Source of the DNA: a virus
Length of the DNA: 64,000 nt
Reading direction: 5' to 3' (one strand)
UHGV virus genome: UHGV-0026213
In this document: positions 8,786-49,476 of the stretch, one piece after another
How the letters are laid out: every line of letters starts with the position of its first letter
Numbering within the stretch: position 1 is the first letter of the stretch
Position numbers and translations under genes: made by a program
The notes under the pieces: generated by a model
The model's database searches: none
Seen by the model: the letters and a program-made list of their open reading frames with translations, nothing else
What the model was told of the DNA's origin: nothing

Positions 8786-8787
8786 CT

Positions 8788-8812
8788 CAGATATATATTA
8801 CCTAGGAGAGAG
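8788..8812 (+). promoter_or_regulatory. Conserved promoter-like motif, copy 1 (cagatatatattacCtaggAgagag) with downstream palindrome
   Basis: One of four near-identical 25-bp motifs, each in an intergenic region upstream of a plus-strand gene block; followed by inverted repeat gagtgaa...ttcactc. Confidence 0.6.
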
Positions 8813-8859
8813 TGAAATTTACATTCACTCCATTAGTTATAGCCGAAAAGGAGGATTAG

Positions 8860-9711
8860 ATGTCACACCCGTATTATCTCCCGCACATTCTAGCAAATAG
8901 GGACCCTGGTTATTACTACGAACAAACAAAGGGATTTGTTGAACGACTTTATATTCGTGAATTTAATACCGATGAAATGACTGATGGCCAGTATCTAGAG
9001 TATCTAAAAGACCTTTACGCTTTTTCAAAATCGAATAAAGGTGGGTTTGGACGTTACTCGGTCATTAGAGATGATGAATATCGTCATTTAGCTAAGCCTG
9101 TTACGTACCCTATTGTTACACGCGCTTATACATCGGATAGGCAATATAAAGCTGAGCTAAAATTTCCTTTACGGATAGACGGACCTCAAATTAGCGCTAT
9201 AGAAGTAGAAATTCAACCAATTGCTGAAGACTATATTAGAGACTACTTCAAGAAAGCTAAAGACGTACTCGACGAGGGTTTAAGTTACTCTGAAGAAGGT
9301 ACGATTTGTCTTCTCTCGTTGCTCTCGAAGACTTATGTCACGGCAAATTTCCGTGTCTCTGATTCCAGTAACTACAATACACTTACTCCCTCTAAGACAA
9401 AACCGGTTTATTGGGACGATCGGTTAGTCGACAGACAACGCTGGCTTACTATCTTAGATAAAGTAAAATTCGAACCCCCTAAACACACCGAAGACAACTT
9501 TATTTTATTGGACGACTTCGAACCGATCTATATCCCGACACATTTTGAACAAGCCTTACGTCATCGGTTGAAATATGTGTTGGAATTACGGTACGGAAAG
9601 ATAAACGGACTAACCTGTTCTGGTGAATTGGGAGAAGAAGAACGCGAGAAAATAAAAATCGTGTTTGATGAGTTGGTTGAAGATTACATTAAGAAGGAAG
9701 GGCAATTATGA
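8860..9711 (+). CDS. Hypothetical protein
   Basis: 283-aa ORF, AAAAGGAGG RBS. Confidence 0.6.
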   Translation: MSHPYYLPHILANRDPGYYYEQTKGFVERLYIREFNTDEMTDGQYLEYLKDLYAFSKSNKGGFGRYSVIRDDEYRHLAKPVTYPIVTRAYTSDRQYKAELKFPLRIDGPQISAIEVEIQPIAEDYIRDYFKKAKDVLDEGLSYSEEGTICLLSLLSKTYVTANFRVSDSSNYNTLTPSKTKPVYWDDRLVDRQRWLTILDKVKFEPPKHTEDNFILLDDFEPIYIPTHFEQALRHRLKYVLELRYGKINGLTCSGELGEEEREKIKIVFDELVEDYIKKEGQL

Positions 9712-10151
9712 AACCAAATACTACTAATGGCATTATGTTACTTTGTGATTCTGAAACGTTAGCAAACCGTATTCGTGGTTTGATGCAAGTACGTTGGCAG
9801 CAGAAAGTTCTCGTGGATTACGATGCACCGTTTGTTCACGTTAGTTGGTTGCCAGAATCTAGTGATTTCAAAGAAAGTATAACCACGAGAAGAATTAAAG
9901 AATGGTTATCGGCAATCATTAATAAACAGATTACCGTTATCAATTTCCAGTTGTTCGGTACCGCTGAAGAACATGAAATCTTGAAACAGTGTTTAAAAGC
10001 GTTGGGTCTTGCCTTCTCTGTTCGTGGAAGTTGCTACACGGCTTACTTTATCGGTTCACTTGAACTGTTTAAGAATACGCTAATGCTTCAACTAAAAGAC
10101 GACTACAAACTTTTAGATAAAATCGATTTCGAATTCCCAGGCATGATTTAA
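9708..10151 (+). CDS. Hypothetical protein
   Basis: 147-aa ORF, ATGA start/stop overlap with upstream gene. Confidence 0.6.
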   Translation: MKPNTTNGIMLLCDSETLANRIRGLMQVRWQQKVLVDYDAPFVHVSWLPESSDFKESITTRRIKEWLSAIINKQITVINFQLFGTAEEHEILKQCLKALGLAFSVRGSCYTAYFIGSLELFKNTLMLQLKDDYKLLDKIDFEFPGMI

Positions 10152-10197
10152 AGAATCATCGCTTAATCACCCCACCATTTACCTAAAGGAGCATTAA

Positions 10198-10713
10198 ATG
10201 TCAGTAAATATTAACATGAATCTTTATACTAAACGTGAACGTCAGATTCTGGCGAATCAACCCGGTGTTACGACTATCGACGGTAAACCTATTGACCGTT
10301 TAAAAGTTATCGTTGCGCGAAATTGTCATGAACGCGATTGGGACATTACCTACTTCCGTTGTTGTTCGGTCGCAAATGCGCTTACTCAACTCTCTAACTA
10401 CCACTCAGGACCGCTATTAAAAGACTGGGTTTGGTTAGTGCCTAGAACACCCTCAGCAATTGAGTATCCTTCTGGGTTAGTTTATATTCGTCCTGTCGCT
10501 TACCCAGAGCGTCTGAAAGAGTATCTTGAAGTTATCTGGAACCGTCCTCGTAAAGAGCTGGTGACGATTATTAATTTACTGCAGCAGATCGAAATCCCTG
10601 GTGTTTTGAATTTGAAACTCACGTCTCGCGATATTAACCAGGCTTACTGGGAACTAGAGTGGACTGAACCGAAATTCGAAAACAGTAACCGCATTTTCTT
10701 GCATCGGGGGTAA
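10198..10713 (+). CDS. Hypothetical protein
   Basis: 171-aa ORF preceded by the recurrent tttacctaaaggag RBS context. Confidence 0.6.
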   Translation: MSVNINMNLYTKRERQILANQPGVTTIDGKPIDRLKVIVARNCHERDWDITYFRCCSVANALTQLSNYHSGPLLKDWVWLVPRTPSAIEYPSGLVYIRPVAYPERLKEYLEVIWNRPRKELVTIINLLQQIEIPGVLNLKLTSRDINQAYWELEWTEPKFENSNRIFLHRG

Positions 10714-10715
10714 AA

Positions 10716-10997
10716 ATGTTAGATTGGTTGTTGGGATTAATTAACTCACGTCAACAGGAGCTTTATAAAGAAAACGCACGGTTACGGCAGGAACTTAGTA
10801 ACAATCGTCAAACCAAACGACAATTAATTCGGATGGTAAAACAACAGGCGCGTTGTATACGGGATATCGATTATCAGTATCACCGTCTGAATACCTTAGA
10901 CCCAACAACAAAAGCTTTAGGTAGTACGATTGGACACGCACGTAAAGTCAGTCACGATGCGTTAGTTCGAATCGATACAGTAGAAGAGAAACTGTGA
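10716..10997 (+). CDS. Hypothetical small basic coiled-coil protein
   Basis: 93-aa ORF; N-terminal helical basic region (ELYKENARLRQELSNNRQTKRQLIRMVKQQ). Confidence 0.5.
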   Translation: MLDWLLGLINSRQQELYKENARLRQELSNNRQTKRQLIRMVKQQARCIRDIDYQYHRLNTLDPTTKALGSTIGHARKVSHDALVRIDTVEEKL

Positions 10998-11040
10998 TAT
11001 AGCCCCTCTCAGGAAATCCTGAGAGGGGGGAGAAAGAAAG

Positions 11041-11349
11041 ATGCATGGTATTTTGATTATTCTTAAAGCCAAACTATACAAAATTGCCTTTTCTTTGTTT
11101 TACGGCCGTATTGTAGAGGAGGTTGTATCGGAATCCGAACCCCATGAAGAAACAGTGATTCGTTTTGGAAAGGAATACACAGTCATGGTTCGTGATGTTG
11201 TGATAGACGTTTACTCTACCGGGGGAATCTTAAAAGGAAAACCTAAGCGCAGATTGTACGGTAAAAGACTTCCTTACATGAGAGATCATTTAATTCTGGG
11301 CTCGTTACAAGAATTTTTCGATTTAAGAGATAATGCAAGAAGTAAATGA
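11041..11349 (+). CDS. Hypothetical protein, possible distant member of the 11353/11722 family
   Basis: 102-aa ORF; RBS lies inside an upstream 12-bp palindrome. Confidence 0.5.
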   Translation: MHGILIILKAKLYKIAFSLFYGRIVEEVVSESEPHEETVIRFGKEYTVMVRDVVIDVYSTGGILKGKPKRRLYGKRLPYMRDHLILGSLQEFFDLRDNARSK

Positions 11350-11352
11350 AAT

Positions 11353-11718
11353 ATGCTGAACAAAATTAAATATTGGTTAAACGATTCGTTTAAAACCTGG
11401 GCTTGTGGTAAGAATGCCTTAACGGTAGTTAAATCGGGCGATTGGTATACAGAGATTATTACATTAGCAAACGGAGGATTGCAAAACATACAAGTTCGTA
11501 ACGTTGTTGTTAAAATAGGGCGCGAGGGAGGAGCAATCTTCAACTCTGAATACTATCAAGTTTCTGCCCTGGAGTTGAAAAACGGTCCGATTTTATTTAT
11601 CGGTACAGCACAACACCTTTACGATACAGTAGTTAAGTTTAGTGAAAGAGTAAAACGTTTAAATGAATCGCTTAGTAAGTTTATTAAAGAAACTGAACGA
11701 ACTACAGTGGAGATTTAA
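11353..11718 (+). CDS. Hypothetical protein, tandem paralogue A
   Basis: Shares W(A/L)CGK...VVK.GDWYTE(I/V)(I/V)T..NG.L.N...R.V.VK(I/V)GR.GG with the 11722 gene. Confidence 0.6.
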   Translation: MLNKIKYWLNDSFKTWACGKNALTVVKSGDWYTEIITLANGGLQNIQVRNVVVKIGREGGAIFNSEYYQVSALELKNGPILFIGTAQHLYDTVVKFSERVKRLNESLSKFIKETERTTVEI

Positions 11719-11721
11719 AAG

Positions 11722-12108
11722 ATGCGTTTATTTTACTTAAAAAGGCGTTTGTCATTAAAAGCCCAACTGTTTGTTAACGAGAAAGTTAAAAACTGGCTGT
11801 GTGGTAAAAGGGTACAATATGTCGTTAAAGAAGGCGACTGGTATACGGAGGTTGTGACTTCCCCTAACGGTGAACTTATAAACGTTACTATTCGTGACGT
11901 TATGGTTAAGGTTGGTAGGGGAGGCGGTCTGTTATTTGGATCAGAAACTATAAGGGTCGTTGCTAAACAATTGAAAGATGGTCGAGTTATATTCAATGTT
12001 ACCGCCCAGAAATACTACGACAATTTATTCGAGTGTCAACGAGCAATAGACAGAATGACCCGTGAGATGCGAAGAATGCACATTACGGAGATCACTATAG
12101 GAGTTTAA
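11722..12108 (+). CDS. Hypothetical protein, tandem paralogue B
   Basis: See 11353. Confidence 0.6.
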   Translation: MRLFYLKRRLSLKAQLFVNEKVKNWLCGKRVQYVVKEGDWYTEVVTSPNGELINVTIRDVMVKVGRGGGLLFGSETIRVVAKQLKDGRVIFNVTAQKYYDNLFECQRAIDRMTREMRRMHITEITIGV

Positions 12109-12419
12109 TGATGGAAAGTAAAATCACAAACACATCGGTACCTGAGAACATTGTCAACTATATTCTCCGTGGTGGGTTGTTAGAAGACAATAAAGAAACG
12201 TGCGATAAACTCGTTTCTCAACTACTACCTATTCGTTCAGAATACTGCGAAATCGTTATCTTAGGTTCCGAGTATTGCGTACGTTCTTACTGCCGTCGTT
12301 ACGAAGCCTTACGCGTCCCTCGTACGTTAGGTGGCGTGATCTTGCTGATTTCGTCTTTTCAAGACGCTCATGTGCGTGTGGCGACCTGGATTGCCAAAGG
12401 AGGTAACAGTGGTTTTTAA
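12108..12419 (+). CDS. Hypothetical protein
   Basis: 103-aa ORF, ATGA overlap with upstream gene. Confidence 0.5.
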   Translation: MMESKITNTSVPENIVNYILRGGLLEDNKETCDKLVSQLLPIRSEYCEIVILGSEYCVRSYCRRYEALRVPRTLGGVILLISSFQDAHVRVATWIAKGGNSGF

Positions 12420-12717
12420 ATTGCTAGGTTTCGGAAAATGCAAAGCGTGCGCAAAGCACGAAGAATATATCAAGTTATTAGAAGAAACAGTTGAAACGCA
12501 GCAAGAACTTATCTCTGAATACCGTGCGAAAACCGGTTCGGTAGAATATTTGACTGTTCTCGTTTGTGCTATTGCTGAATTGGGTTGTGAGGGGAAATTG
12601 CCTAAAGAGGAGATATTAAAACTATTAAAAGAAAAAACGTCGTTTTACCGTAAAGATATTGAAGACTGTAAACGTGAGATTATAAGAGCGAATTGGGAGA
12701 TTATCAATGAAGCGTGA
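12409..12717 (+). CDS. Hypothetical protein (start moved to GTG at 12409)
   Basis: AAAGGAGG RBS 5 nt upstream of GTG at about 12409; the longer listed ORF from 12370 has no RBS. Confidence 0.45.
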   Translation: MVFKLLGFGKCKACAKHEEYIKLLEETVETQQELISEYRAKTGSVEYLTVLVCAIAELGCEGKLPKEEILKLLKEKTSFYRKDIEDCKREIIRANWEIINEA

Positions 12718-12988
12718 AACGGTTGTATTTCGTAGTAATGGTGATGTGGTTTTGTATCGTGGTAAGAAACGTATTCGTACGTTAGATTATCGCGAAGCAA
12801 AACGTTTCGTTGAAGAGTGTGCGTGGTTAATGCATTACGAAGGGAACTATCGGGCCATCTTAGAAGCACCGCGTTTAGAACGTGCAGTTGCGCAGATGGC
12901 AATAGGTAATCCTAAGAACTGTTACCTGGCACGCAAACCAAAATACCTGCAACGTGTCTCGCTAGGCAGTTTTATTGCGGGATTTTAA
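12707..12988 (+). CDS. Hypothetical protein
   Basis: 93-aa ORF. Confidence 0.5.
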   Translation: MKRETVVFRSNGDVVLYRGKKRIRTLDYREAKRFVEECAWLMHYEGNYRAILEAPRLERAVAQMAIGNPKNCYLARKPKYLQRVSLGSFIAGF

Positions 12989-13000
12989 TAAAAATAATTT

Positions 13001-13025
13001 CAGATATATATTACTTAGGTGAGAG
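13001..13025 (+). promoter_or_regulatory. Conserved promoter-like motif, copy 2 (cagatatatattacttaggtgagag) with downstream palindrome
   Basis: Identical over about 37 bp (aaaaataatttcagatatatattacttaggtgagagt) to the copy at 49407; followed by gagagtacaaaagctctc. Confidence 0.65.
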
Positions 13026-13068
13026 TACAAAAGCTCTCACTTAACGAACCATTTTAGGAGAATATACC

Positions 13069-13335
13069 ATGAACTTCACTAAAGCTGATTATGCTAAAGA
13101 ATTAGTTTCTAAAGAAGATTACAAGTTTACTGTTGAACTAGACTATGTATTAACCGAAGATGAAAAAGATGCGCTGTATAAAGCGTTCCGCAAACACTTC
13201 GGTGCGTTGTTCTTTATGGGTTTCCGTAAAGACTCTATCGATATTGGCTATACTGTCGCAGTACGTACCGATGAGGAAATGTTCAATATGGTGTGCGAAA
13301 TCGTCAGTACCATTACTGCTAAACGTGCGATTTAA
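13069..13335 (+). CDS. Hypothetical protein
   Basis: 88-aa ORF; RBS context aggagaatataccATG identical to that of the 46178 gene. Confidence 0.6.
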   Translation: MNFTKADYAKELVSKEDYKFTVELDYVLTEDEKDALYKAFRKHFGALFFMGFRKDSIDIGYTVAVRTDEEMFNMVCEIVSTITAKRAI

Positions 13336-13358
13336 CTTCAACGTTTAATTACACTACA

Positions 13359-13388
13359 GGGTAAGGGAATCCCTTACCCTATTATTTC
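13359..13388 (+). terminator. Intrinsic terminator
   Basis: gggtaaggg-aat-cccttaccc hairpin followed by T/A-rich tract. Confidence 0.7.
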
Positions 13389-13416
13389 GATATGTAAAAC
13401 TAAAAGGAAAATAAAA

Positions 13417-14193
13417 ATGAAAACTGTTGAGTTTAAAAATAGCAGTCTTTGGGCATACTCGCACATCATTACGAGTTTCCTGAAAAACGTTACTTCGCAC
13501 CTCGCTTATCAGTTTTGTGGAAATGAGCTCACTATCGGCGGTTTTAACGAGGAAGAATTAAAACGTGCAAAAGAGTTCATTGACGATGTTCTTCATGGCG
13601 ACGCGACGTGTTTAGTTGCGAGTTACGTTGCTAAAGACAAAGGAAGATTAAACATCATGGCAATCTTCCGGGCGCTCTCCGAAAAAGTATACGAAGTTGA
13701 GAAGGCTAGTCATGGCGTTTATATTGTTTACTTTAAACGTTCAGCGGAGAAAAACGCTGATAAACTTCTGGAGTATTTCGACTGTAACCCAGGGGAAGGT
13801 ATGGATGTCTATACGCTCGGTTATGATGGGGTACCTCACCGGAATAACCTTATTCGAGTTGACGAACCTTTTTCAGTCAATGATAACTCCACGCCTATAG
13901 AGTTGGTTCTGGTTCACAAAGATCGTTTCGCGCATTACGATTCTGATACTATTCAACGTGTCCTGAACAACGTTAATATACAGTTTTCACAAACCGAGCA
14001 CCTGGTACGTGCTTGTGTTAGGTCTAATGGCACAACATCATTTTTCCTGGAACGTCAAATCATTTGGCAGACTTATCTGGCTTTGATGGAAGAACTCGAT
14101 AGGATCGAACCAGTTCAGGTTGGTACAAATTGCTTATATTGGATAAAAACAAAGGGGTTCAAGAATGAAAACACTCAATTCAGATTTGCGTGA
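13417..14193 (+). CDS. Hypothetical protein
   Basis: 258-aa ORF. Confidence 0.6.
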   Translation: MKTVEFKNSSLWAYSHIITSFLKNVTSHLAYQFCGNELTIGGFNEEELKRAKEFIDDVLHGDATCLVASYVAKDKGRLNIMAIFRALSEKVYEVEKASHGVYIVYFKRSAEKNADKLLEYFDCNPGEGMDVYTLGYDGVPHRNNLIRVDEPFSVNDNSTPIELVLVHKDRFAHYDSDTIQRVLNNVNIQFSQTEHLVRACVRSNGTTSFFLERQIIWQTYLALMEELDRIEPVQVGTNCLYWIKTKGFKNENTQFRFA

Positions 14194-16238: not shown

Positions 16239-16245
16239 CCTCTCT

Positions 16246-16405: not shown

Positions 16406-17254
16406 ATGTCTCTTACGTCAAAACAGAAACTGCTAAAACTCATCAACACTGAAAACAATATTGTTCCACCATTGACCTTCAGTGATGTTGATATCGGCGA
16501 ACCTACTGGTACTGGGGTTGATACCCAGGTGGTTCTGACTTCTAAACTCAAAGGCGATGAGTCTACTACTTTAACCGTGACTTACCATCGTCGTAATTTG
16601 CCCGAATACCTAACAGGTGAGTTGGTATTCGGTAACGACGGTGTTGTAACCGCCGCAGATTTGCTTAATGCAATCAACGCAAAATACGATTTAAATATCC
16701 TGCCGTCGGATATCGTTGATGCGAAAGTTGAAGGCGAAACCCACCAACTTACCGCTAACGAGAAATCCTACGAGTGGTGCGGCGAGGTGACACTTACGCT
16801 ACGCGATCCTATTGATCTGGCTAAACTATTACCTGTTACTCAATTAGAAAACCTGGTAGAGTATCCGTCCACTAAGAAAGGTAACGCTGCGGTTTATTCT
16901 TATCCAATTGACTTCACCGCAGAAAAAGATTACCTCGATCCGATTACCATTAACGACACTGTCGACCTGGCTGAGTTAGCCACTAAACTGGTCAACGTCG
17001 TTGATGAGAAATGGGTAAGCGTACCTAAAAACGCTGCTAATAACCTCTACGGTGCTAAGGTTATCTACGATGGGCCTACCGCAGGTTATGAAGGTGCAAA
17101 CACAAAGTACACGCGTGTGCTGGTACTCGCACTCAGTGGGCTGTGTGCTAACCTGACCGGTAATCTGTTAATCCACTTTAACGGAACCGATCGTCCGAAG
17201 TCGAAGATTGAATTAGCTAAAACTAATTCGGTCTTACCGGGATTCTTAGATTAA
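16406..17254 (+). CDS. Hypothetical protein, member of a four-gene family (16406, 17268, 20409, 21020)
   Basis: Shared N-terminal pattern (L.N......T..DV.(I/F)G.P........T.V.LT...). Confidence 0.6.
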   Translation: MSLTSKQKLLKLINTENNIVPPLTFSDVDIGEPTGTGVDTQVVLTSKLKGDESTTLTVTYHRRNLPEYLTGELVFGNDGVVTAADLLNAINAKYDLNILPSDIVDAKVEGETHQLTANEKSYEWCGEVTLTLRDPIDLAKLLPVTQLENLVEYPSTKKGNAAVYSYPIDFTAEKDYLDPITINDTVDLAELATKLVNVVDEKWVSVPKNAANNLYGAKVIYDGPTAGYEGANTKYTRVLVLALSGLCANLTGNLLIHFNGTDRPKSKIELAKTNSVLPGFLD

Positions 17255-19671: not shown

Positions 19672-19756
19672 CTATTTCTAAGGCGTTTATACCTTATTTT
19701 GTATAAAGACGCTTAGAATGCGTTTTACGCACGATTTGGCGGTTAAAATGAATATA

Positions 19757-40900: not shown

Positions 40901-42225
40901 CCGTAAGCTAACGCGGCATCTGTCGCAATACCATTCAGCTCTAACGCACGGATCGGACCCCACGTATCGGTGTGCGGGTTGTCCTTACGTGTAACGTGTT
41001 CGTGTGCAGGCGCGTTACGATACAGCTGCTCAACTAACTGATGGTATTTGACTATTAACTGGTAAACATCGTTATCGATGTCAGGTTCTGGTGCGCCGGG
41101 TAAAGAACGAATTTGAATATAATCGTTTTCGGCCGCATACCAGTTTAAATTAATGTTCGTTTTAAACTTCAACCATTTAGCAACATCCGTTTTCGAATAC
41201 CCTGCCGAGAACTCATCAGGCGGCGTATCGACATTGAATGTGTAATCCATGGTCTGTTTATTTGTTTTTACTACGATGACGTAAACACCGTTTCCGGGTT
41301 GACGGGTTACACTAAAATCGATATCGTTTTTTAACTCATCGTCAGTTAAACCGTTGATTAACGTATAATCGTAGTTTGTTGAACCGCTACCAATAGCGAC
41401 CGTTAAGACCAGTGAGATTTTGCGCTGTTTTAGCTGCAGCCGTAGAATACTTGCACCGCCGTTAGCATAACAGAGCATCCAATCGATCTGTTCGTTTGGA
41501 TTCAATTTCGTCATGTCTGGCAGAATAGCAGGAATTATGTGTTTCACTGACAGGGCGTAGTCGTTAAAGGTTGCAGTTTTATAACTCAAGCTATAACGAT
41601 GACGGGCAGTGTTGTAGGTGAAGCCACCTTTATTGTCGTATACGGCATACTGCTCGGAAGTGATAACCTTGCTATTAGCACGGTATTCTAAATCCAGGGT
41701 ATTGCGTGCGATGGGGTTAAGCCGACTCACGACTTCCCCTAACGAATCGCCTAATCCAGCAATAGCCTGCATTAATTCCAGTTCACCTTTCCAATTCTCC
41801 CAATCGAACTGAATATCGACCGGCGGAAAGTAAACGTCCCCGATGACGGTGTCCCACTGACACGCAGACGGGTATTTATCTTTATTGAGTTCGCGTTCTG
41901 CGCTAATCTGTTGTTGGGTAGCCTGACCACAACCAACGGCGTGGTAATCTACCGTAAAATTCGATTTGTATTTGTCATTAACAATCCAAATCATCCCGTG
42001 AATGAGATAGGCTGTGCGCAACATACCGGTCTCGTACGGGTGTGTAATAACGTAATCGTCGCCTAAGGTCAGTGTTTTGCCGCCGCTCTTGACCACCAGG
42101 GATGTGGTGAAAAAAGGGGCGTGGGCAGGTACCAACATTCGGTATTTCGTACCAATGACGGCGACCGCTTCACCGGTTATTTTATTCCCCGGTTTTTTGA
42201 AGTGTGGGTCTAAGACGACAGCCAT
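37903..42225 (-). CDS. Giant tail fibre or tailspike-like structural protein (1440 aa)
   Basis: N-terminal HAPFF...GDDYVI module; first gene of the minus-strand structural operon. Confidence 0.65.
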   Translation of the reverse strand: MAVVLDPHFKKPGNKITGEAVAVIGTKYRMLVPAHAPFFTTSLVVKSGGKTLTLGDDYVITHPYETGMLRTAYLIHGMIWIVNDKYKSNFTVDYHAVGCGQATQQQISAERELNKDKYPSACQWDTVIGDVYFPPVDIQFDWENWKGELELMQAIAGLGDSLGEVVSRLNPIARNTLDLEYRANSKVITSEQYAVYDNKGGFTYNTARHRYSLSYKTATFNDYALSVKHIIPAILPDMTKLNPNEQIDWMLCYANGGASILRLQLKQRKISLVLTVAIGSGSTNYDYTLINGLTDDELKNDIDFSVTRQPGNGVYVIVVKTNKQTMDYTFNVDTPPDEFSAGYSKTDVAKWLKFKTNINLNWYAAENDYIQIRSLPGAPEPDIDNDVYQLIVKYHQLVEQLYRNAPAHEHVTRKDNPHTDTWGPIRALELNGIATDAALAYGKTKQQLTDYVNAKYPTQATLTAQKKLLRESPSKNVNGTITTLPGFTSFTTEVDPVSMSKYVSPYFSESYVSSGHRYHGALRYTGAKSGFIANFNAVPANLQDIDFIVTGRKTASGNEAVGRVGLRFYENPGSNSGKFVEITGQIWGGTLTISLTLNGYGSPLPSVRYISQAPNPAIPDGDFTLRFQLKRTGNVFDVVITVNGKTYSGRINFDNMDAALEALENQHHFKSLINNVADAVTISSQNKGNTVTIKKAPDVVDETRLGAQFVVDPKSIKFIGQGSTDVNVGNNPVTFQAGTNQLVLYPDDRGLLWRGKKLLDPTTVAPYLPGNTAGGTGLFYASSTTTVTITGSGIKASPFVATFILPTATDTTALAAWQLTDEFGTAENLAATPALIEKLDAEFTGKLVAVKSYINDMQLTSSVTIDKITFGLGNVANTPDADLPISTAQRAELDKYSPKVHQHPFTAFGTGNATTAQRGLIKFGLDVDDVTLALDGSVVMAQTSQIEKLERAVSGVDSEARLDIIRFGESGNDLIDLTVKDKILVTLPASTYFIGGETYDVPLMTINVSERFPKLNTEIYAGIFVDIVDNKAKYIVHDSYSQAETDTMTRVGLIGVNDISEVFVTEMRNVTRLGDFRELKDHKADDNAHIQRSASRAALGLANLTVGAPCWASGLQAVVRGEADWRYVAGGQYKALDGVKYDQLASKWIFDAKGVSDNLHGFIHNMFPAFKNAGMRVSWETESNAKTGTVLETVLGCWKNTDGEFMRLSLLITRGYRLTDSNGEYCYAGFGLNFGSGKSVVVGFTPTKRVTPAPWSSLQPEVSFTHNRSATNAITFSARLTLAGTTYTVAVHLSATDKYVSCTAAGGTTQKIPLTDRLTGFNIEPIVNDPYTPIYYGLGGLYEDEVRANIRSTADSATANKVYGTLLDYISNYSSLNRVRVMELTGVSSDPETLNALVATEFNNNLVDYAALPIPPYLNKERVMSFIDTNNKVQAVIIRD

Positions 42226-42293
42226 TCTCTACTCCTATAGTCCGTGGGCGTCGAAGTTCATACTATGACTTGAATCTATAGAGGAAAAGAGCT

Positions 42294-43556
42294 GTGACTA
42301 CTGCTTATCAAGTGCGGCCCGACAGCGCTTTTGGCTTCTCTCGAGAGTCCCGTACCTGGGGAGCCATCGATGTCACGCAACCCTTAAATACGTTGTGTTC
42401 AGACTACCACACCTTTGAGATCGGTTTAAGTGCACTTGGTAAAGACTATACGTTAGTCAGCCAATACCATCTTGCCGAGCTACAAAACCGAACAGACACT
42501 TTACAAGATTGGTTAAATGAAAAGGCCGGAAACGTCATCCCCACTCTAAAGGCCGGATTGCCGAAACTCGAATTCAGTTGGGCGCATTACCAATCGATTA
42601 ATGCTGACGTGCCCGTTGAAACGTACCTGTGTCCGCCGGGGTACCACCACAGTCAAGATTTCAGCTTAGACGATGCTGACGACGTTGTCATCGTTTGTGA
42701 GGACAAGTGGAAGGACAAATACCGTAATAGCGTTCTGTACAACATTAACGGTCAGTGGGTACCGCATCAGACGGATACCGTAGGTGTCCGATTACCCGGG
42801 GCCGGTAAAATTGTACGAAGGGCCTGTACGCCAGATATCGGCTGTATGGTTTTTGGTCAGTTAGGGAATGTTAAAACTTACCCCATCGCCAACCTTACCC
42901 TAAACAAGCTCGACACTACACGTGACTATTACTCCACGTTAATGATTTCACTGCCCGAATCTATTACGGGGAAAACGGTGGGTTTCGTCATCGGTGGTCT
43001 GTTACGTTGGTTGCCCCCAGGCGGTTATTTCTCCGACCGTGCGATCATGATTTCTTTACCGAATTTTGATCTTGCGCGGACCGTTCTGGAAACCCGTCGC
43101 TATTACGACTGGGACGCCATCGGTGTAGGGGATTTATCAACGCCTACTAATGTCCAACGTATTCGCAACCCCGAAACATTAAAGGCACTTTTACTCCACG
43201 AGTCTTCGTTTATCTTTACGGTAGATAACCCGTATTTAGAAGAAGAGGTTGTGGGTGTATCGCATAACGCAGTTTGGGGACGTTGTTATCTCAAGGACCC
43301 TAGCGATCCTGATTCTGAAAAACCATTAGGGTACTTAAATAATCGTTTCGGAAAGACGGTGGGCTATTGGCCTACATGGGAGGAGGGTGAGTGGGTATTT
43401 AACACCACGGAGTTCGACAGTCAAAACTACGTCTTTCGTGAAGCCCGGTGGTATAATCAGAAGAAGATTAACGACGCGCAAGCAATCGTCGGTCCATTCG
43501 GTCCCTGGGAAAAAGTGTATTTAGAAATGCATCGCTTTAGAGCACGAAAAAAATAA
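42294..43556 (+). CDS. Hypothetical protein (GTG start), divergent from the fibre operon
   Basis: 420-aa ORF. Confidence 0.55.
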   Translation: MTTAYQVRPDSAFGFSRESRTWGAIDVTQPLNTLCSDYHTFEIGLSALGKDYTLVSQYHLAELQNRTDTLQDWLNEKAGNVIPTLKAGLPKLEFSWAHYQSINADVPVETYLCPPGYHHSQDFSLDDADDVVIVCEDKWKDKYRNSVLYNINGQWVPHQTDTVGVRLPGAGKIVRRACTPDIGCMVFGQLGNVKTYPIANLTLNKLDTTRDYYSTLMISLPESITGKTVGFVIGGLLRWLPPGGYFSDRAIMISLPNFDLARTVLETRRYYDWDAIGVGDLSTPTNVQRIRNPETLKALLLHESSFIFTVDNPYLEEEVVGVSHNAVWGRCYLKDPSDPDSEKPLGYLNNRFGKTVGYWPTWEEGEWVFNTTEFDSQNYVFREARWYNQKKINDAQAIVGPFGPWEKVYLEMHRFRARKK

Positions 43557-43562
43557 AGTAAC

Positions 43563-43605
43563 CTCCTACCCTCTAAGAGGGTAGGAGTAGCACGTTTTTT
43601 TTTTC
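43563..43605. terminator. Bidirectional terminator
   Basis: ctcctaccctc-taa-gagggtaggag flanked by A-run and T10. Confidence 0.8.
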
Positions 43606-43607
43606 GC

Positions 43608-43818
43608 TTAGTCTTTTTTGTAGACAATTGCGTTACCGTGCAGTTTGTTGTTGCCGGAAATACCGATAACTTTGAATGCGTCGCCGCCAATTTTTTCAGC
43701 TTCAGCAGCCAGCTTACCCGTTACATGATCAACGGTGTCGCCGAAAGCGCTAACGTTACCGATTTTCTTAAACTCTTCTGGAATATGCTCAGCAGAAGAG
43801 AACTCTTTAATAGACATA
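43608..43818 (-). CDS. DUF1471 (YdgH/BhsA/McbA)-like small protein without signal peptide
   Basis: GGAGAG RBS then ATG at about 43818; product MSIKEF...IGNVSAFGDTVDHVTGKLAAEAEKIGGDAFKVIGISGNNKLHGNAIVYKKD fits the enterobacterial DUF1471 pattern. Confidence 0.5.
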
Positions 43819-44023
43819 ACAGCTCTCCATTTCAAAAGGAAGGTGGTCTAAGACCGACGTGTGTTACAACCGAAGCATAAGATAGCTCCTCCCCGTAGGG
43901 AGGAGTAGAGTGCGCGAAAAAAGTGGCCTGCTTAACTAAACGATGGGTTTAAGAAAAGTGTTGATAAAAAGCTTTACCAACGTCAGGTCACAATATATAA
44001 ACACAACGTAAGAAAAAGGGGAA

Positions 44024-44989
44024 TTATTGCGGAGGTGATGTCGGACCATGTTTACCTTGGTGAATGTGAACGCTAAAGGTAATACCGGAAATAATGGCAT
44101 CTTTAACCGTAAAGACACCCACACCTTCACCCGTACCACCGTATTTGAAGTTCTTAGCAACTTCCAAATTACCGGTGAACATCGCTTCCTTCCCTTCTTG
44201 TTTAAAGTTCGGCGTTTTAAACGTTGTCGAACTGCCCGCTTCTGTTAACCAGGTTTGTGTTTTAAACGTAACGGAACTCGCTGCTTCCGTATTGCGGACT
44301 TCGCATTTTTCATTAATCGTTTTCGTTTCCAGGTTAATAGAACGCTTTGAATAAATGAACGCATCTTCTTTGTTGATGTTCACTTTTGAAAGCATCGCAT
44401 TCTCAAACCCGAGATCATCTTCAACCGAGTTAATGTAATACTTGTTTCCTTTATGGTCAACGCACTGCCACGTACCGTTTGCATTATCAAACTGAAACAA
44501 CCACGCCGCTTTCTCGCCATTCACCATACTCGTTCTTAGCGTGATATGTTTGTCAATCGTCGAAACGTTCAACACATACGCATTGGACAAGTCATCCGCC
44601 ATTTGGTTTTCAGGGTCAGCCGACCACGCATAAACCGCATCTTCTAATCGCTTAACGTTAGCGAAGTTCAGATCAATCCAAAAATAAATATCGGTTTTCC
44701 CCAAACGTAACAAGATAACGTAATCTTCTCGTTTAACGTCAGGGGAATTAATTCGGTTGGAGTTAAACTTCCACCACTTTGCTGTTATCGTGTTACCCGT
44801 CTTAATGGTTAGGTTATCTGTTGCACCAGATGTTTCGTGCGTCTTTTCAGTTGCTGAAGAAACAGATTGCACCACGGTAGGGTTAGCAAAGTTGGTTTCA
44901 ATTGGTATCACTTTTACCCGATCTGTACCACGGGGTTTGTCTTCCGCGACGATACCAATTGAGAAAAAATCAACACTGGATTTCTCCAT
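44024..44989 (-). CDS. Hypothetical protein (possibly structural)
   Basis: 321-aa ORF. Confidence 0.55.
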   Translation of the reverse strand: MEKSSVDFFSIGIVAEDKPRGTDRVKVIPIETNFANPTVVQSVSSATEKTHETSGATDNLTIKTGNTITAKWWKFNSNRINSPDVKREDYVILLRLGKTDIYFWIDLNFANVKRLEDAVYAWSADPENQMADDLSNAYVLNVSTIDKHITLRTSMVNGEKAAWLFQFDNANGTWQCVDHKGNKYYINSVEDDLGFENAMLSKVNINKEDAFIYSKRSINLETKTINEKCEVRNTEAASSVTFKTQTWLTEAGSSTTFKTPNFKQEGKEAMFTGNLEVAKNFKYGGTGEGVGVFTVKDAIISGITFSVHIHQGKHGPTSPPQ

Positions 44990-45018
44990 CGGGACGTTCC
45001 TTAGATCGGAATTGAATT

Positions 45019-45044
45019 CAGATATATATTACTTAAGTGAATAG
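45019..45044 (+). promoter_or_regulatory. Conserved promoter-like motif, copy 3 (cagatatatattacttaAgtgaatag)
   Basis: Lies in the divergent intergenic region upstream of the 45.1-49.3 kb plus-strand block. Confidence 0.6.
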
Positions 45045-45410
45045 GGGCTGAAGTGCCAGTTCAGCCACTACGGACACGTTTCATTCGAAACGGATTGATT
45101 AAACCATTTGGGGAGACAGATCATGTCTACTAAAAAGAAAGAAAGTCTCAATGAGCTGCTCAAACGGCTTAAAGACTACACTCCATTTAGTACCTTCCGA
45201 TAACAGGTACTAAAATTTTACAGTCTGTCCCTTTATTCTGCTACTCGGGATACCGGTAGGGGGTAGGGGGCATTATGTATACGGATATAAATAGCGGAGG
45301 TATACGGAGTATACCGACATACTCTTCCCAGAGGAACGTAGTGACTTCCTTATACCTCTTTTACAATCCATAATAATAGCCTTCCCTTCATTGGGATTAG
45401 CGAGTAAATC

Positions 45411-46148
45411 ATGAGAGAATTATTAGACGATATCTTTACCAACACCAGTTTAGAACTTTCTTCTACGGTGGTTAACGAACTAATAGGGCAAACCCAACCT
45501 GCTAAGTTAATCGATGTTGGAACAATTAAACCTGAAGATTATCCAGACAGTGACGTTATCGACTGTATGATTGACGAATACGTGATAGGAAGTTACGCCA
45601 ACCGCGTCTTCTTTGTTATTAATACCGAAACCAGTGTCATGTTAATCTATAAGTTGATCAGTGATGCCGAACTTGAAGTTGTGGCTGACCACATTCGTCT
45701 TCTTGCGAACACACCTACTAGTATCGCTGATGTGCTTATTGGGAACGGTTGGGCTTTACCACCACTATTCTCTTACTTCCCTCTGTTTAGAAATGGGATA
45801 GGGTTACTCCGAAATGCAGAAAATCTTCCCGATAACGTCGAGTTATCACTGCTTGGACCCGGCATCGATCTTTGTCCATTAGAAGACGAGGGCACGCTAT
45901 ATGGTTTGCGCATCTATGTTTCTGTGTTAAACGGATACCGCGTTATTGAACTAATTGCATCCGACTTAGCAAAACAGATCCCAGATGTGGAAACGATTTC
46001 TAAAGCCACCCACCTGGTTGAGATTAACTCAGATGATCCCTTATTGAAATATCACGAGAAAATTGATCTTCGTAAAATCGCCACGATGAGAGGGTGGGGT
46101 TGTGCTGAGATTACGAAGGACTATCTGCTGTTAATTAAAACCGCGTAA
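45411..46148 (+). CDS. Hypothetical protein, loosely related to the GW...LLF C-terminal family
   Basis: C-terminus RGWGCAEITKDYLLLIKTA. Confidence 0.55.
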   Translation: MRELLDDIFTNTSLELSSTVVNELIGQTQPAKLIDVGTIKPEDYPDSDVIDCMIDEYVIGSYANRVFFVINTETSVMLIYKLISDAELEVVADHIRLLANTPTSIADVLIGNGWALPPLFSYFPLFRNGIGLLRNAENLPDNVELSLLGPGIDLCPLEDEGTLYGLRIYVSVLNGYRVIELIASDLAKQIPDVETISKATHLVEINSDDPLLKYHEKIDLRKIATMRGWGCAEITKDYLLLIKTA

Positions 46149-46177
46149 TTAAGAAAACCGAAAAAGGAGAATATACC

Positions 46178-46732
46178 ATGTTTCAAACTGAACTGAAAAA
46201 TGAAATTATCCAAACCCTTGAAAAGGGCGTAGGCGAACATTTCTTTGTCCGTCCTTATACCGTACTGACCAATACCATTATTCAGCCTGGTGCGATGATA
46301 GTAGGGGTAAGTGTACAAGCTGTAGAGGAAACCCCGCTGCGTCGTAACATCACACGTAAAACCCATATCCCATTTAAAACAGGTTTTACAGATTACCTTC
46401 AGAGCTTACTGGGGGATAGCGCTTGGAAAACAGGCAGCTTCTTCCACGAAGGGAAGACTTCCACGCTGGTTTATAAAGAGAGCACCAAGTATCTGGTTGA
46501 TTTTCTCTTAGCGCGTCAGTATACTTTCTTTCCAACCCCTACTGACTGCACCCCAGACAACCCAGGTAAGTTATTAAACCAAAGCGAAGCCGAGGCACTC
46601 TTTACAAGACTTCGGAATGAACAGTGCGATGTTGACGACTGGGAAACGTTGATCGCGGTCGCTAAAGCCCACGGTTGGTATACCGTACGTAAAATCGGCC
46701 AGCAGCTGTTGTTCTTAGCTTACCCTGCTTAA
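46178..46732 (+). CDS. Hypothetical protein, GW...QLLF C-terminal family
   Basis: C-terminus AHGWYTVRKIGQQLLFLAYPA. Confidence 0.6.
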   Translation: MFQTELKNEIIQTLEKGVGEHFFVRPYTVLTNTIIQPGAMIVGVSVQAVEETPLRRNITRKTHIPFKTGFTDYLQSLLGDSAWKTGSFFHEGKTSTLVYKESTKYLVDFLLARQYTFFPTPTDCTPDNPGKLLNQSEAEALFTRLRNEQCDVDDWETLIAVAKAHGWYTVRKIGQQLLFLAYPA

Positions 46733-46761
46733 GTAACGAAAAAACCTAAAGGAGAGTAAAA

Positions 46762-47913
46762 ATGCGAAATATTATTTCTAAACCAGGACATGCCAAGATC
46801 CTAAAAGAACTGATGGACAGATGCTATAATCGGACTTGGTCACTACCAAGCTTAACCATCGAATCTTCATTACAACGTGAGTTGTTTGGTTATAACTTGG
46901 GCTGCTGTGTACTTACTGAATACAATGAGATTATCGCACCTGTCGATGTCTGTACTTACGATGAAGAAATTGAAGGTTACAAGTTCGCGGTTTACACAAA
47001 TTGTGGACTAAATTACCGTAAACTCGTTGTTAGGGAAAAGAGTAGCAACCGGAAGATTATGTTTAAGGTCTTCCCAAGTGGTAAAGTCAGTAATTTATGT
47101 CTTCAGCTTGAGAAAGTGCCCTTTCACGGTGCAGCCATTTTAACTAAACCAGAACTCCTGTTATTAAGCGGGTTAATTGGCTTTGAAGTAAAAACCATCA
47201 AAGTTGAGCAGGAACTTACACGAAACGATTTCGGCTCAACTTGGTACGAAAGTTTCTTCCGCTACGAAATGTTAAGTGATAAAGCTATCAAACTCACTTA
47301 CCGTTCTACCGACGATATCGTTTACCACATTTTAATTAGCGGCGAACCCCACCAGATTATTGAAGACGAAGGAGAAAAATCAGTGTGCACCTTAAAAGAT
47401 GAATTAACTGATTTTGTTAACAAAATTGATAACGTGGGTATCAGTGAATTATTGTTCCCGATACAGCATCCAGAGTTGCTTGACGAGAAATCTGAAAACG
47501 TGGTTATGGGTGTGCATTTACTTCCTGACCATCTTGCTATCTACCGTACACTTTCTAAAAATCAACTTAAAGTGTGGTGCCTGTTAAAAGACCTTTTAAC
47601 AGAGGCGGGGTGGTCGTGTAGTGTAGATGTTAACTGTGAAGGAGTTGCGTTCTTCATCACAATAGGCAATCGTAGTTTTTCTGTCGATTTACCTACTCGC
47701 AGCTATTACAATTTCTTCCCGACCGCAGAAGGACGTACTGAAAAAGAACCCGCATTACTGCTCAGTGCTGAGGAGTCCAATGCGTTAATGACGAAACTAA
47801 AAGCGAAAGACGAGAAGCTGGATGCTTTACATCTACCTATAATCGGGAAAGACTACGGTTGGGCTGACGTGCAAAAATACGGCAGCCAACTGTTGTTTGT
47901 TGCCAACATTTAA
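46762..47913 (+). CDS. Hypothetical protein, GW...QLLF C-terminal family
   Basis: C-terminus DYGWADVQKYGSQLLFVANI. Confidence 0.6.
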   Translation: MRNIISKPGHAKILKELMDRCYNRTWSLPSLTIESSLQRELFGYNLGCCVLTEYNEIIAPVDVCTYDEEIEGYKFAVYTNCGLNYRKLVVREKSSNRKIMFKVFPSGKVSNLCLQLEKVPFHGAAILTKPELLLLSGLIGFEVKTIKVEQELTRNDFGSTWYESFFRYEMLSDKAIKLTYRSTDDIVYHILISGEPHQIIEDEGEKSVCTLKDELTDFVNKIDNVGISELLFPIQHPELLDEKSENVVMGVHLLPDHLAIYRTLSKNQLKVWCLLKDLLTEAGWSCSVDVNCEGVAFFITIGNRSFSVDLPTRSYYNFFPTAEGRTEKEPALLLSAEESNALMTKLKAKDEKLDALHLPIIGKDYGWADVQKYGSQLLFVANI

Positions 47914-47980
47914 TAAGTGAAACTACACTTTCTCTAACTGCCGCGCTTTAGTCGCGGCTTTTGTTAAGAAGGAAATAGAA

Positions 47981-48754
47981 ATGAAAGTCCATTTAGACGA
48001 TATCTTTAAAACCGAACCGTATATGATCGAAGGCCCGCTATCATCACTACTATTTGCCGATAGATTAGATCGTACGCTGCAATTACAATCGGTCGAATCT
48101 GCACCCGTTGATGATGTAGAGCGTTACGAGCGCATCAACCATACGCGGGGTGAGTATCGTCGCTATAAGCCAAATTCACTAAGCATCAAGCTCTGGCAAG
48201 TGAGCACAGGTAAAGTATTAACTTATCGCGCTGTTGGTAGTTATTACATTCAACAAGCCAAGGAATGGCTAGAGAAAGTTAAAGAACTGAACTTCGATCT
48301 ACTGAGCAAAAAACTGCGCGATCATAACGCCAGTTTGCCGATACGTAATTATTTCTCCACGATTGAAAATAGTCGTTGTTTCGTTTCTCGTGAATCCACG
48401 ATATTACCTGGGGATGATGTTCAGACGACACTAAAAGATGTGGTTGTGAAGAAAATCTTTCATGAATCTGAACACGTTGGGTTCCGTATCTACTTAACAC
48501 ACAAGAGACCATTTACCGTTATTCACGTTGATACCGCACCCGAAGGCTCAGCGGTTATTCGAGAACTTCCTGATGCTCGAGACCGTTGCCCTAATGAGCC
48601 GCTTTATTTAATGTCAGGAACAAAATCAACCGCGTTGATGTCCCGTTACAGCATGTTAGATGTTGTTGACGCTGCTATGAAACTAGGTTGGAAAGAAGTG
48701 CAGCAACATGGTAAACAATTGCTGTTTATTGCCGATGTAAAACTTAATCAATAG
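47981..48754 (+). CDS. Hypothetical protein, GW...QLLF C-terminal family
   Basis: C-terminus KLGWKEVQQHGKQLLFIADVKLNQ. Confidence 0.6.
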   Translation: MKVHLDDIFKTEPYMIEGPLSSLLFADRLDRTLQLQSVESAPVDDVERYERINHTRGEYRRYKPNSLSIKLWQVSTGKVLTYRAVGSYYIQQAKEWLEKVKELNFDLLSKKLRDHNASLPIRNYFSTIENSRCFVSRESTILPGDDVQTTLKDVVVKKIFHESEHVGFRIYLTHKRPFTVIHVDTAPEGSAVIRELPDARDRCPNEPLYLMSGTKSTALMSRYSMLDVVDAAMKLGWKEVQQHGKQLLFIADVKLNQ

Positions 48755-48766
48755 TGAGGTGGTACC

Positions 48767-49345
48767 GTGTACCGATTAATAGAAATGCGAAAAGACGTTT
48801 GGTTGGAAAACCTCGTCGATGGGGAGCTTGAGGGAATAGAGCTTTCCTTACCAGAAAGAGCGGACACGGTATTGGTCTTTCTGATAAAACAGGCAGCGAA
48901 TGAACCGGTAGGAATCTTCAGCGTGGACTATAAAGACCCACGAGGGATTCATTTACGGAACATTTGCAGTGGTTTAGAAAGCTTACCGGCTAATCCGTTC
49001 TTAAACTACGCAAAACGTAAACTCCAGCCTGGACAACATCTCTGGGTAGTTCTAGCGCCTGATACACGCATTATACGTGACGACCTGACTGCGTTTGTCC
49101 AAGCAACGAAAGTCAGTTTGTACAATCCTAATGCGGATCGTACCGATATGCCGTTTACAATCACCTTAGAAGACGATGGAACGCAAGAGGGTATTGAGGC
49201 AATTACGGAATTAGTAAACTCTTATCCGGTAGCGTCTATTGAGTTAGAAAACCCAAACCGATTACCGTTGGGTGATTTACTCGAATGGATTGAGCTGAAT
49301 ACCGAGTTCCTCATTAACTCCCGGCAGTACCGGTTCGATGTATAA
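48767..49345 (+). CDS. Hypothetical protein (GTG start)
   Basis: 192-aa ORF. Confidence 0.55.
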   Translation: MYRLIEMRKDVWLENLVDGELEGIELSLPERADTVLVFLIKQAANEPVGIFSVDYKDPRGIHLRNICSGLESLPANPFLNYAKRKLQPGQHLWVVLAPDTRIIRDDLTAFVQATKVSLYNPNADRTDMPFTITLEDDGTQEGIEAITELVNSYPVASIELENPNRLPLGDLLEWIELNTEFLINSRQYRFDV

Positions 49346-49349
49346 CATC

Positions 49350-49383
49350 GGTGGGGGTTTACCCCCCACCTTTTATTTTTTTG
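49350..49383 (+). terminator. Intrinsic terminator
   Basis: ggtggggg-ttta-ccccccacc followed by ttttatttttttg. Confidence 0.8.
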
Positions 49384-49406
49384 TTCGTTAATATTAAAAA
49401 TAATTT

Positions 49407-49431
49407 CAGATATATATTACTTAGGTGAGAG
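49407..49431 (+). promoter_or_regulatory. Conserved promoter-like motif, copy 4 (cagatatatattacttaggtgagag)
   Basis: Identical to copy 2 including the upstream A/T block; precedes the secreted-protein gene array. Confidence 0.65.
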
Positions 49432-49476
49432 TTACGATTAACTCTTTATACATTAACGCCATGAAGGAGCAAAACA

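Follow-up and report, generated by a model that had tools for sequence, protein, structure and literature searches.

What is the role of a short sequence that recurs four times between the genes of a jumbo phage, each time with a small inverted repeat beside it? The question is raised by a stretch of 64,000 nucleotides from the virus genome UHGV-0026213, referred to below as the window. The original prediction described a 25-bp promoter-like motif in four copies, and suggested that these could be early promoters of the kind found in phiKZ-like jumbo phages, which use an RNA polymerase (RNAP) packaged in the virion. The analysis presented here indicates that the four repeats are very probably early promoters of this phiKZ-like class. 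We also consider it likely that the locus combines two features, namely a promoter of the phiKZ type and a stem-loop at the 5′ end of the RNA made from it, the latter possibly with a stabilising effect.

The motif and its likeness to phiKZ-type early promoters

On the plus strand of the window, the sequence TTCAGATATATATTAC-TA-GTGA is found at four places, starting at 8785, 12998, 45016 and 49404. When these are compared with the 24-mer TTTCAGATATATATTACTTAGGTG, the second and fourth copies match exactly, the third has two mismatches and the first has three. The same 24-mer gave no match in 100 dinucleotide-preserving shuffles of the window, showing that the repeated motif is real. The expectation that the copies would differ by at most 2–3 substitutions holds for copies 1, 2 and 4; copy 3 has four differences from the 25-mer on which that expectation was based. 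Copies 2 and 4 are identical over 38 nucleotides (nt), in good agreement with the figure of about 37 bp given before.

Copy 1 (TCTCAGATATATATTACCTAGGAGA) covers positions 8785–8809 with its core at 8794–8801, and copy 2, including its -30 element TTAATAAAAATAA, covers 12985–13022 with its core at 13007–13014. Copy 3 (ATTCAGATATATATTACTTAAGTGA) lies at 45016–45040 (core 45025–45032), and copy 4 with its -30 element at 49391–49428 (core 49413–49420). Alignment of the four regions gives an invariant block CAGATATATATTAC-TA-G-GA, and the likeness between them is lost past about -30 and +12. The sequence ATATATTAC is invariant in all four copies, and the elements TTTCAGA and TA-GTGA are present in each, with small variants (TCTCAGA, ATTCAGA, GGAGA). 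A -30 element resembling ATTAAAAAT is present in copies 2 and 4, and has a T-rich form in copy 1. The window consensus is ATTAAAAATAATTTCAGATATATATTACYTAGGTGA.

The bare 8-mer core TATATTAC is not by itself informative, being found six times in the window where 2.4 are expected, which is not significant. The two surplus matches (at 4681, and at 26236 on the minus strand) have none of the flanking motif, and a relaxed search of the window allowing up to seven mismatches found no further credible copy. Only 6.3% of the window is non-coding according to a greedy gene call, and all four copies are located there, in the gaps 8737–8859, 12989–13068, 44990–45410 and 49346–49476. Each is oriented in the same direction as the block of small ORFan genes that follows it, as had been predicted.

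The core TATATTAC is listed as the predicted early promoter of phiKZ (PMC7058600, Table 2), so that the link put forward earlier is borne out by the published table. The same table gives TTAWTAVAA-HYWTTTRARR-BTATATTACDWHDGTG for 201phi2-1 (which may also be written TTTRARR-B-TATATTAC-DWHD-GTG), and consensus sequences ending in TTTYARRYAKATATTATYWWADTG for OBP and in TTTCARRYAKATATTATYWAAGTGWA for N1M2. The window sequence TTTCAGA-TA-TATATTAC-TTAG-GTG lines up with these three element by element. The predicted promoters of 201phi2-1, OBP, N1M2 and EL share with it the three-part architecture and a GTG at the start region (PMC7058600, PMC11512511). The N1M2 consensus differs from the window motif at about three positions, and the core ends in TTAC in the window, phiKZ and 201phi2-1, but in TTAT in the N1M2/OBP type.

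The comparison with phiKZ itself is also close. The first 50 kb of its genome contains seven TATATTAC sites, all intergenic, all on the plus strand and all within tttaaacagTATATTACtaacttga. Besides the identical 8-nt core, phiKZ and the window share a TTT-purine-rich element about 10 nt upstream, G/TTG 4–5 nt downstream, the siting of intergenic, co-oriented copies before small hypothetical genes, and a homologous polymerase in the family. They differ in that the phiKZ sites read TTTAAACAG-TATATTAC-TAACTTGA, where the spacer separating the core from the -20 element is one base shorter, and in that the conserved block of the window type is longer and far more uniform.

An AT-rich motif of about 10 nt, centred near -10, is found before the presumed early operons of every RNAP-encoding jumbo phage, and has been confirmed as an early promoter wherever transcripts have been profiled (PMC7598289). 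In 201phi2-1 it lies about 10 bp upstream of mapped starts, with conservation at -10, -20 and -30 (PMC11512511). In the phiKZ-type family the injected virion polymerase is responsible for early transcription, which is insensitive to rifampicin (PMC13282480). There are 28–32 early promoters of this type in a phiKZ genome, used by the virion RNAP. The sites in the window have the AT-rich core, the -20 and -30 elements, the G-containing start region and the multiple intergenic, co-oriented copies that characterise this class. They are thus further members of a well-known class, in a phage not previously described.

On this basis the promoter would extend over about 38 nt, comprising an A/T-rich -30 element (ATTAAAAAT), TTTCAGA near -20, ATATATTAC near -10, and TA-GTGA running into the start. 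Because the AT-rich core is placed at -10 by analogy with phiKZ and 201phi2-1, transcription is predicted to start at the G/A of GTGA or no more than about 2 nt away from it. The start would be near 8806–8809 for copy 1, 13019–13022 for copy 2 and 49425–49428 for copy 4; the G/A itself falls at about 8808, 13021, 45039 and 49427 in the four copies. The transcripts would then enter blocks of small, fast-evolving genes, insulated from the units upstream by terminators. Both steps, the start site and the transcription of the gene blocks, are drawn from homology and from the anatomy of the locus.

A sequence as rich in A and T as this could also be a strong host promoter, read by the sigma70 form of the host RNAP for immediate-early expression. 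Copy 2 can indeed be read as TTAATA-16-TATATT, a 9/12 match, next to an UP-like A/T tract; copy 4 has the same sequence, and the start predicted in this way would be similar. Against this, copies 1 and 3 have no -35-like hexamer, and the invariant CAGA and TAC-TA-GTGA fall outside the hexamers. The same core is moreover used in phages of Pseudomonas, Salmonella, Erwinia and Klebsiella (PMC7058600), and infection of the phiKZ type is resistant to rifampicin (PMC13282480). Sigma70-like sites in the window are not enriched over shuffles (35 against 33.9, and 22 against 33.3), in accordance with the earlier statement that the motif is not sigma70-like. A sigma70 promoter was rejected as a candidate on the grounds that the match is weak and confined to copies 2 and 4, with conservation lying outside the hexamers, and we regard it as very unlikely.

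Distribution of the motif and relatives of the phage

The window belongs to an uncultured relative of Salmonella phage SPN3US and Erwinia phage phiEaH2. Its large open reading frames (ORFs) match families that are characteristic of giant phages, among them tail fibres and ‘virion structural protein’, and its gene order parallels SPN3US gp124–gp203. A virion protein encoded on the minus strand at 61716–63089 is 84% identical to its phiEaH2 homologue, 78% to those of SPN3US relatives and about 27% to those of phiKZ/201phi2-1-type phages. The closest sequences are uncultured contigs of 221–225 kb in the IMG/VR database, at 93–96% nucleotide identity.

It is worth adding that the complete genome of E. 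coli strain 98232, a urinary isolate, includes a circular ‘plasmid’ of 221,873 bp (NZ_CP173450.1, p98232-contig_4) that has the same promoter and shows 83% identity over 57% of a 20-kb query (window 40000–60000). Judged by its sequence, this ‘plasmid’ is evidently a jumbo-phage genome, and the presence of such a replicon in an E. coli isolate would indicate E. coli as a host for the lineage.

If the motif is used by a virion polymerase, the phage should encode one, and a check for multisubunit RNAP genes had been proposed. None was found within the window, and by synteny with SPN3US, which has six genes annotated as RNAP beta or beta′, they would be expected elsewhere in the genome. SPN3US gp241, which is annotated as an RNAP beta subunit, has a full-length homologue with 76% identity in both of the closest IMG/VR relatives. 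It is reported to be a subunit of the virion RNAP in SPN3US (Thomas et al., 2016). A virion polymerase is thus represented through the gp241 homologue of the relatives, the packaging of the enzyme resting on the literature (PMC7598289). The proposal that the repeats are early promoters is supported by the match to published consensus sequences, by the kinship with SPN3US and phiEaH2, and by the RNAP beta homologue in the relatives.

A megablast search of window positions 8000–14000 against 50,697 phage records matched 34 of them. All matches listed span only 36–68 bp, and all are at motif copy 2: those to phiEaH2 and Erwinia phage Asesino cover 66 bp at 87% identity, and those to SPN3US-like phages 36–39 bp at 95–97%. 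The phage is new to this collection at the nucleotide level. The conserved block of 23–38 nt is nearly invariant in phages of Salmonella, Erwinia, Cronobacter and E. coli.

When IMG/VR was searched for exact occurrences of TCAGATATATATTACNTANGNGA, there were 52 matches on 20 contigs, all of which are 208–246 kb long or are fragments of such phages, and the closest relative has at least seven sites with the exact pattern. Among 185,579 bacterial and archaeal species genomes there was one match to the promoter pattern, on a 9.7-kb contig (USOK01000042.1) assigned to the uncultured bacterium UMGS1924 from a human-gut metagenome bin; this contig is probably a mis-binned fragment of a jumbo phage. 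Among 5,426 complete E. coli genomes, the sole carrier of the motif is the 222-kb jumbo-phage ‘plasmid’ described above, and this is a further point against a host sigma70 promoter.

The complete SPN3US genome allows the distribution to be followed along a whole chromosome. With up to six mismatches there are 12 sites on its plus strand, compared with 0–1 in shuffles (about 0.2 expected). All 12 are intergenic and precede plus-strand genes, namely gp5, gp22, gp55, gp66, gp76, gp99, gp101, gp112, gp125, gp135, gp180 and gp249; some have a variant core, ATATTAT. The site before gp22 also precedes gp23, an RNAP beta subunit gene, as would be expected if early promoters drive expression of the second polymerase. 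Copies 1, 2 and 4 of the window lie in the same gaps as the SPN3US sites 109889 (upstream of gp125), 113982 and 165683 (upstream of gp180). The proteins encoded next to these syntenic promoters are only 25–57% identical to those of SPN3US, or have no homologue there.

The motif might alternatively belong to a second, non-virion polymerase, and be a promoter of the middle or late class. The early timing in this clade does rest on homology; moreover, a gene in the second block of the window (16406–17254) matches a ‘virion structural protein’ family of the PHROGs database, and SPN3US site 72680 directly follows the major capsid gene. The middle and late motifs of phiKZ-type phages are however weak and quite different, being an AT-rich TACT near -22/-24 and a TATG at the start, respectively (PMC7598289), and it is the TATATTAC class that has been validated as early (PMC7598289, PMC11512511). 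There is accordingly only a very slight chance that the motif is of this other kind.

Some observations fit the assignment to phiKZ-like early promoters less well. Copy 3 has no -30 element and no counterpart was found for it in SPN3US, and the position of the transcription start is extrapolated from Pseudomonas phages. Copy 3 is nonetheless present in a related IMG/VR contig (L015), at 96% identity.

The stem-loop at the predicted start of transcription

Each copy of the motif is accompanied by an inverted repeat, as the original prediction stated. The repeat is real and conserved, but its spacing was misjudged: it directly adjoins the 3′ end of the motif or partly covers it, and does not lie 5–10 nt downstream. 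After copy 1 it occupies 8808–8831, where GAGTGAA-N7-TTCACTC forms a 7-bp stem (8810–8830; z = -2.75, in a 52-nt leader). After copy 2 it is again a 7-bp stem, GTGAGAG-N8-CTCTCAC, at 13019–13040, and takes in the GTGA of the motif. The stem-loop after copy 3 (45042–45070) is long and imperfect, with about 10 bp and one G/A mismatch. That after copy 4 (49427–49446) is GAGAGTTA-CGAT-TAACTCTT, with seven Watson–Crick pairs and one G–U, and scores 54 bits with covariance model R1. The window hairpins are individually modest (z from -0.9 to -2.8), and are convincing only through comparison across phages.

For this comparison, 50 unique instances of the motif were collected from 20 jumbo-phage contigs. 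Perfect Watson–Crick stems of at least 5 bp at a fixed site, with the 5′ arm beginning inside or just after GGTGA, are found in 60% of the 50, compared with 8.5% at random positions and 9.2% in shuffled sequence; for stems of at least 6 bp the figures are 48% and 2.7%. A 34-nt RNA starting from the G of GTGA was then folded for each instance, using shuffles and a segment 60 nt downstream as controls. The mean minimum free energy (MFE) is -5.9 against -2.5 kcal/mol (p about 1e-10 for the shuffles and 7e-7 for the downstream control). The stem begins at nucleotide 0 in 34 of the 50 instances and at nucleotides 0–2 in 42, and this tight spacing of the stem base to the core is consistent with the start predicted at GTGA.

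The pairing is conserved more than the sequence. Stems include GTGAGAG/CTCTCAC, AGAGTTA/TAACTCT, AGATTA/TAATCT, AGCATTGA/TCAATGCT, GAGTGAA/TTCACTC, TGATAGA/TCTATCA and TAGGGACTGAA/TTCAGTCCCTA, and the loop varies between 3 and 11 nt. When arms were swapped among 34 non-redundant instances, the mean MFE rose from -5.8 to -3.3 kcal/mol, and the native value was reached in none of 2000 permutations. A covariance model was built from nine instances of equal geometry and used to realign 45 sites; a MAFFT alignment of the hairpins was ungapped, with the 3′ arms out of register, and was not used for pair counts. In the realigned sites 86% of cells form pairs, against 74% in shuffles, and the covariation score is 0.299, against 0.125 in shuffles (0/500) and 0.007–0.052 with the partners slid by 1–3 columns. 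In contig L015, the relative of copy 3 has a perfect 11-bp stem, with a compensatory double change from G–C to A–T within the long stem.

The feature is not shared by all phages that use the core. A general hairpin signal is absent from the seven phiKZ sites (-2.7 against -1.8 kcal/mol), with a strong hairpin at the promoter of gp54, the nuclear-shell gene. Only a weak signal is seen among 38 unique promoters of the OBP/N1M2 type taken from IMG/VR (-3.5 kcal/mol, compared with -2.7 in the downstream control, p = 0.27; 12 of 38 stems at nucleotides 0–2), and the single instance of this set on a contig that also has the main motif (L076) does show a hairpin. Most of the 12 SPN3US sites have one when inspected by eye, including some of the ATATTAT class. 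A scan of IMG/VR with a loose phiKZ-type pattern was dominated by chance matches to contigs of small size, and its output was set aside. On these comparisons, the hairpin is an addition, enriched in one clade, to a promoter that is more widely shared. We found no description of this early-promoter stem-loop in the literature searched, and we regard it as a modestly novel feature of the SPN3US/Erwinia-type clade.

What could such a hairpin do? If transcription starts where predicted, each transcript could fold from its +1 position into a stem-loop of 6–11 bp, the sequence of which differs between promoters, so that the early mRNAs would carry a 5′-terminal stem-loop. It is known that a stem preceded by only 0–2 unpaired 5′ nucleotides is what is required to block decay by RNase E and RppH, as in the ompA and T7 leaders. 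Relative to the predicted start, the 42 stems at nucleotides 0–2 would have this geometry, and pairing across the instances is kept by covariation. The leaders are uniform, the start codon lying about 50 nt beyond GTGA, and the hairpin is consequently well clear of the ribosome-binding site. The ompA 5′ untranslated region and the T7 gene 10 leader have the same arrangement, namely a stem-loop at the 5′ end with 0–2 unpaired nucleotides, far from the ribosome-binding site, and variable in sequence with pairing conserved. The differences are that here the structure would accompany an entire class of promoters throughout a clade of phages and not single genes, and that the 5′ end is a predicted one. 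The stem-loop would in this way protect early mRNAs from decay dependent on the 5′ end, before any protection made by the phage itself. We put the chance that it acts as an RNA 5′ stabiliser at a little short of even, the alternatives being a function in DNA or a different role in RNA. The broader proposal, that it is a dedicated 5′ RNA structure on essentially all early transcripts of the virion polymerase in the SPN3US/Erskinevirus/CR5-like clade, is put forward still more tentatively.

Several points count against these proposals, or limit the weight of the figures given above. The hairpins are weak when taken one by one (-4 to -10 kcal/mol). Because the alignment used to score covariation had been fitted to the structure, its figures are supportive but not exact, and the instances are phylogenetically related, with the result that the p-values overstate their independence. 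The promoters of phiKZ work without a general hairpin, which means that it is not needed for recognition. Within the stems, excluding the terminal pair, there are 11 G–U and 9 A–C oppositions, showing no strand bias, and the stability of the sense strand exceeds that of the antisense by only a small margin (-5.9 against -5.3 kcal/mol, p = 0.04). The last two observations leave room for a role in DNA.

Such a role would make the inverted repeat a part of the promoter or an operator. It could be a structure extruded on melting, which helps the sigma-less virion polymerase to open or clear the promoter, or a site at which a phage protein shuts the promoter off. In addition to the lack of G–U bias and the nearly equal stability of the two strands, the repeat is at a fixed distance from the -10 core, and its 5′ arm overlaps conserved promoter bases, GTGAGAG. 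On the other side, the stem sequence differs among the promoters of a single genome, which speaks against recognition by a sequence-specific operator protein, and homologous polymerases in phiKZ/OBP-type phages use the same core without a general repeat. Overall a DNA-level function is the less likely reading, and a sequence-specific operator in particular is unlikely.

A precedent for a DNA hairpin is provided by phage N4, the early promoters of which have a hairpin of 5–7 bp with a 3-nt loop and conserved bases, upstream of the start. It is used by the N4 virion RNAP, a T7-like single-subunit enzyme. The likeness is that in both cases the polymerase is carried within the virion and a short inverted repeat is integral to each early promoter region. 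In the window clade, however, the repeat is at or after the predicted start, its loops are 3–11 nt long, and the polymerase belongs to the multisubunit beta/beta′ type. An N4-like promoter hairpin is unlikely because of this position, the variable loops and the type of polymerase, and was rejected as a candidate for the same three differences.

It might also be argued that the hairpin serves as an intrinsic terminator or attenuator close to the promoter, since many of the 3′ arms are followed by Ts and SPN3US promoter 165683 has a genuine terminator after its hairpin, or that the whole unit is a selfish repeated element. Once those Ts that pair with the 5′ arm GAGA are counted as stem, a T run (at least three Ts in the 4 nt after the stem) is left in only 15%, and the stems are A/U-rich. 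The repeated unit is only about 40 nt long, has no flanking repeats, and occupies syntenic gaps in phages with genes that have diverged to 25–60% amino-acid identity. Both candidates were rejected, and either would be a highly improbable explanation.

Gene blocks, terminators and possible consequences for early infection

Copy 1 is preceded by a strong intrinsic terminator (8740–8774, a 16-bp stem followed by a T run), which ends the upstream late or structural unit. It is followed by predicted early block 1 (8860–12988, plus strand), consisting of ten genes for proteins of 93–283 residues, mostly without family matches; only two have SPN3US homologues (gp127 and gp131). Predicted early block 2 begins with a gene for an 88-residue protein (13069–13335), after which there is a terminator-like hairpin at 13358–13380, and the plus-strand block continues to 19671.

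Copy 3 is divergent from a gp173-like gene on the minus strand (44024–44989). Predicted early block 3 (45123–49345, plus strand) starts with a 26-residue ORF (45123–45203), which has a good ribosome-binding site (MSTKKKESLNELLKRLKDYTPFSTFR) and is preceded in the leader by a second hairpin (45077–45092). It is followed by about 200 nt of non-coding sequence and then, from 45411, by five genes for proteins of 184–383 residues. An intrinsic terminator (49350–49370, GGTGGGGG-TTTAC-CCCCCACC and a T run) lies before copy 4, so that strong terminators close the preceding unit just upstream of both copy 1 and copy 4. Predicted early block 4 (49477–52887, plus strand) has seven genes for proteins of 129–202 residues, with terminator-like sites at 51690–51710 and 52230–52249. 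Ten proteins encoded downstream of the promoters gave no match in Pfam, nor did the five of them that were compared with PHROGs give any there. Scans of the window against Rfam and for tRNA found no matches.

A number of other features were noted. The non-coding sequence at 45245–45335 (ggtagggggtagggggcattatgta...cggaggtatacggagtataccgacat), between the gp173-like gene and the next plus-strand gene, is conserved in SPN3US at 161470–161550. A hairpin within it shows a compensatory change, the arms being GGTATAC/GTATACC in the window and GGTATCC/GGATACC in SPN3US. The sequence has no match in Rfam, and could represent a small RNA or else a different class of promoter. The first protein behind copy 4 (49477–49938) has no SPN3US homologue and has an N-terminus resembling a signal peptide (MKIFTSFLIALFVIGFNTAHA), and may be an early exported protein. 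In SPN3US (165683–165780), the 5′ hairpin is followed about 20 nt later, and before gp180, by the terminator GGCTACC-TTCG-GGTAGCC and a T run. The result would be a short RNA of about 55 nt, or an attenuator of that length; in the window, an extra gene takes the place of this unit.

A family of terminator hairpins of the form TACCCTACTCC-loop-GGAGTAGGGTA is found at gene-block boundaries on both strands of the window (19755–19782, 60443–60464 and 61057–61082), and also in Erwinia phage Asesino (about 2946–2975), just upstream of a copy of the promoter. It looks like a conserved terminator motif similar to those reported for phiKZ and 201phi2-1. Finally, the minus strand between 27166 and 42225 carries tandem genes for proteins of 401, 1727, 1402 and 1440 residues. 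They form a paralogous family, match the overlapping ‘virion structural protein’ PHROGs 2163, 7449, 8078 and 7557, and correspond in position to SPN3US gp167–gp170.

With the four repeats assigned as phiKZ-like early promoters, four early transcription units can be annotated in an uncultured jumbo phage that has relatives among phages of E. coli and Salmonella, and with them genes that are likely to be involved in takeover of the host. The assignment also provides a 23-nt search key, for which every match in IMG/VR was on a jumbo-phage contig. Nearly invariant while the neighbouring genes drift to 25–60% amino-acid identity, the promoter of about 38 nt marks out the bases through which a sigma-less virion polymerase may recognise its template.

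If the hairpin acts in RNA, it would amount to a 5′ element, both simple and portable, that stabilises transcripts, and could help to explain how the first phage mRNAs survive before any phage proteins have been made. A dedicated 5′ structure on these transcripts would then represent a previously undescribed post-transcriptional layer of the early programme of jumbo phages, serving to shield the first mRNAs, or to tag them for handling on their exit from the early-infection vesicle, the site of their synthesis.

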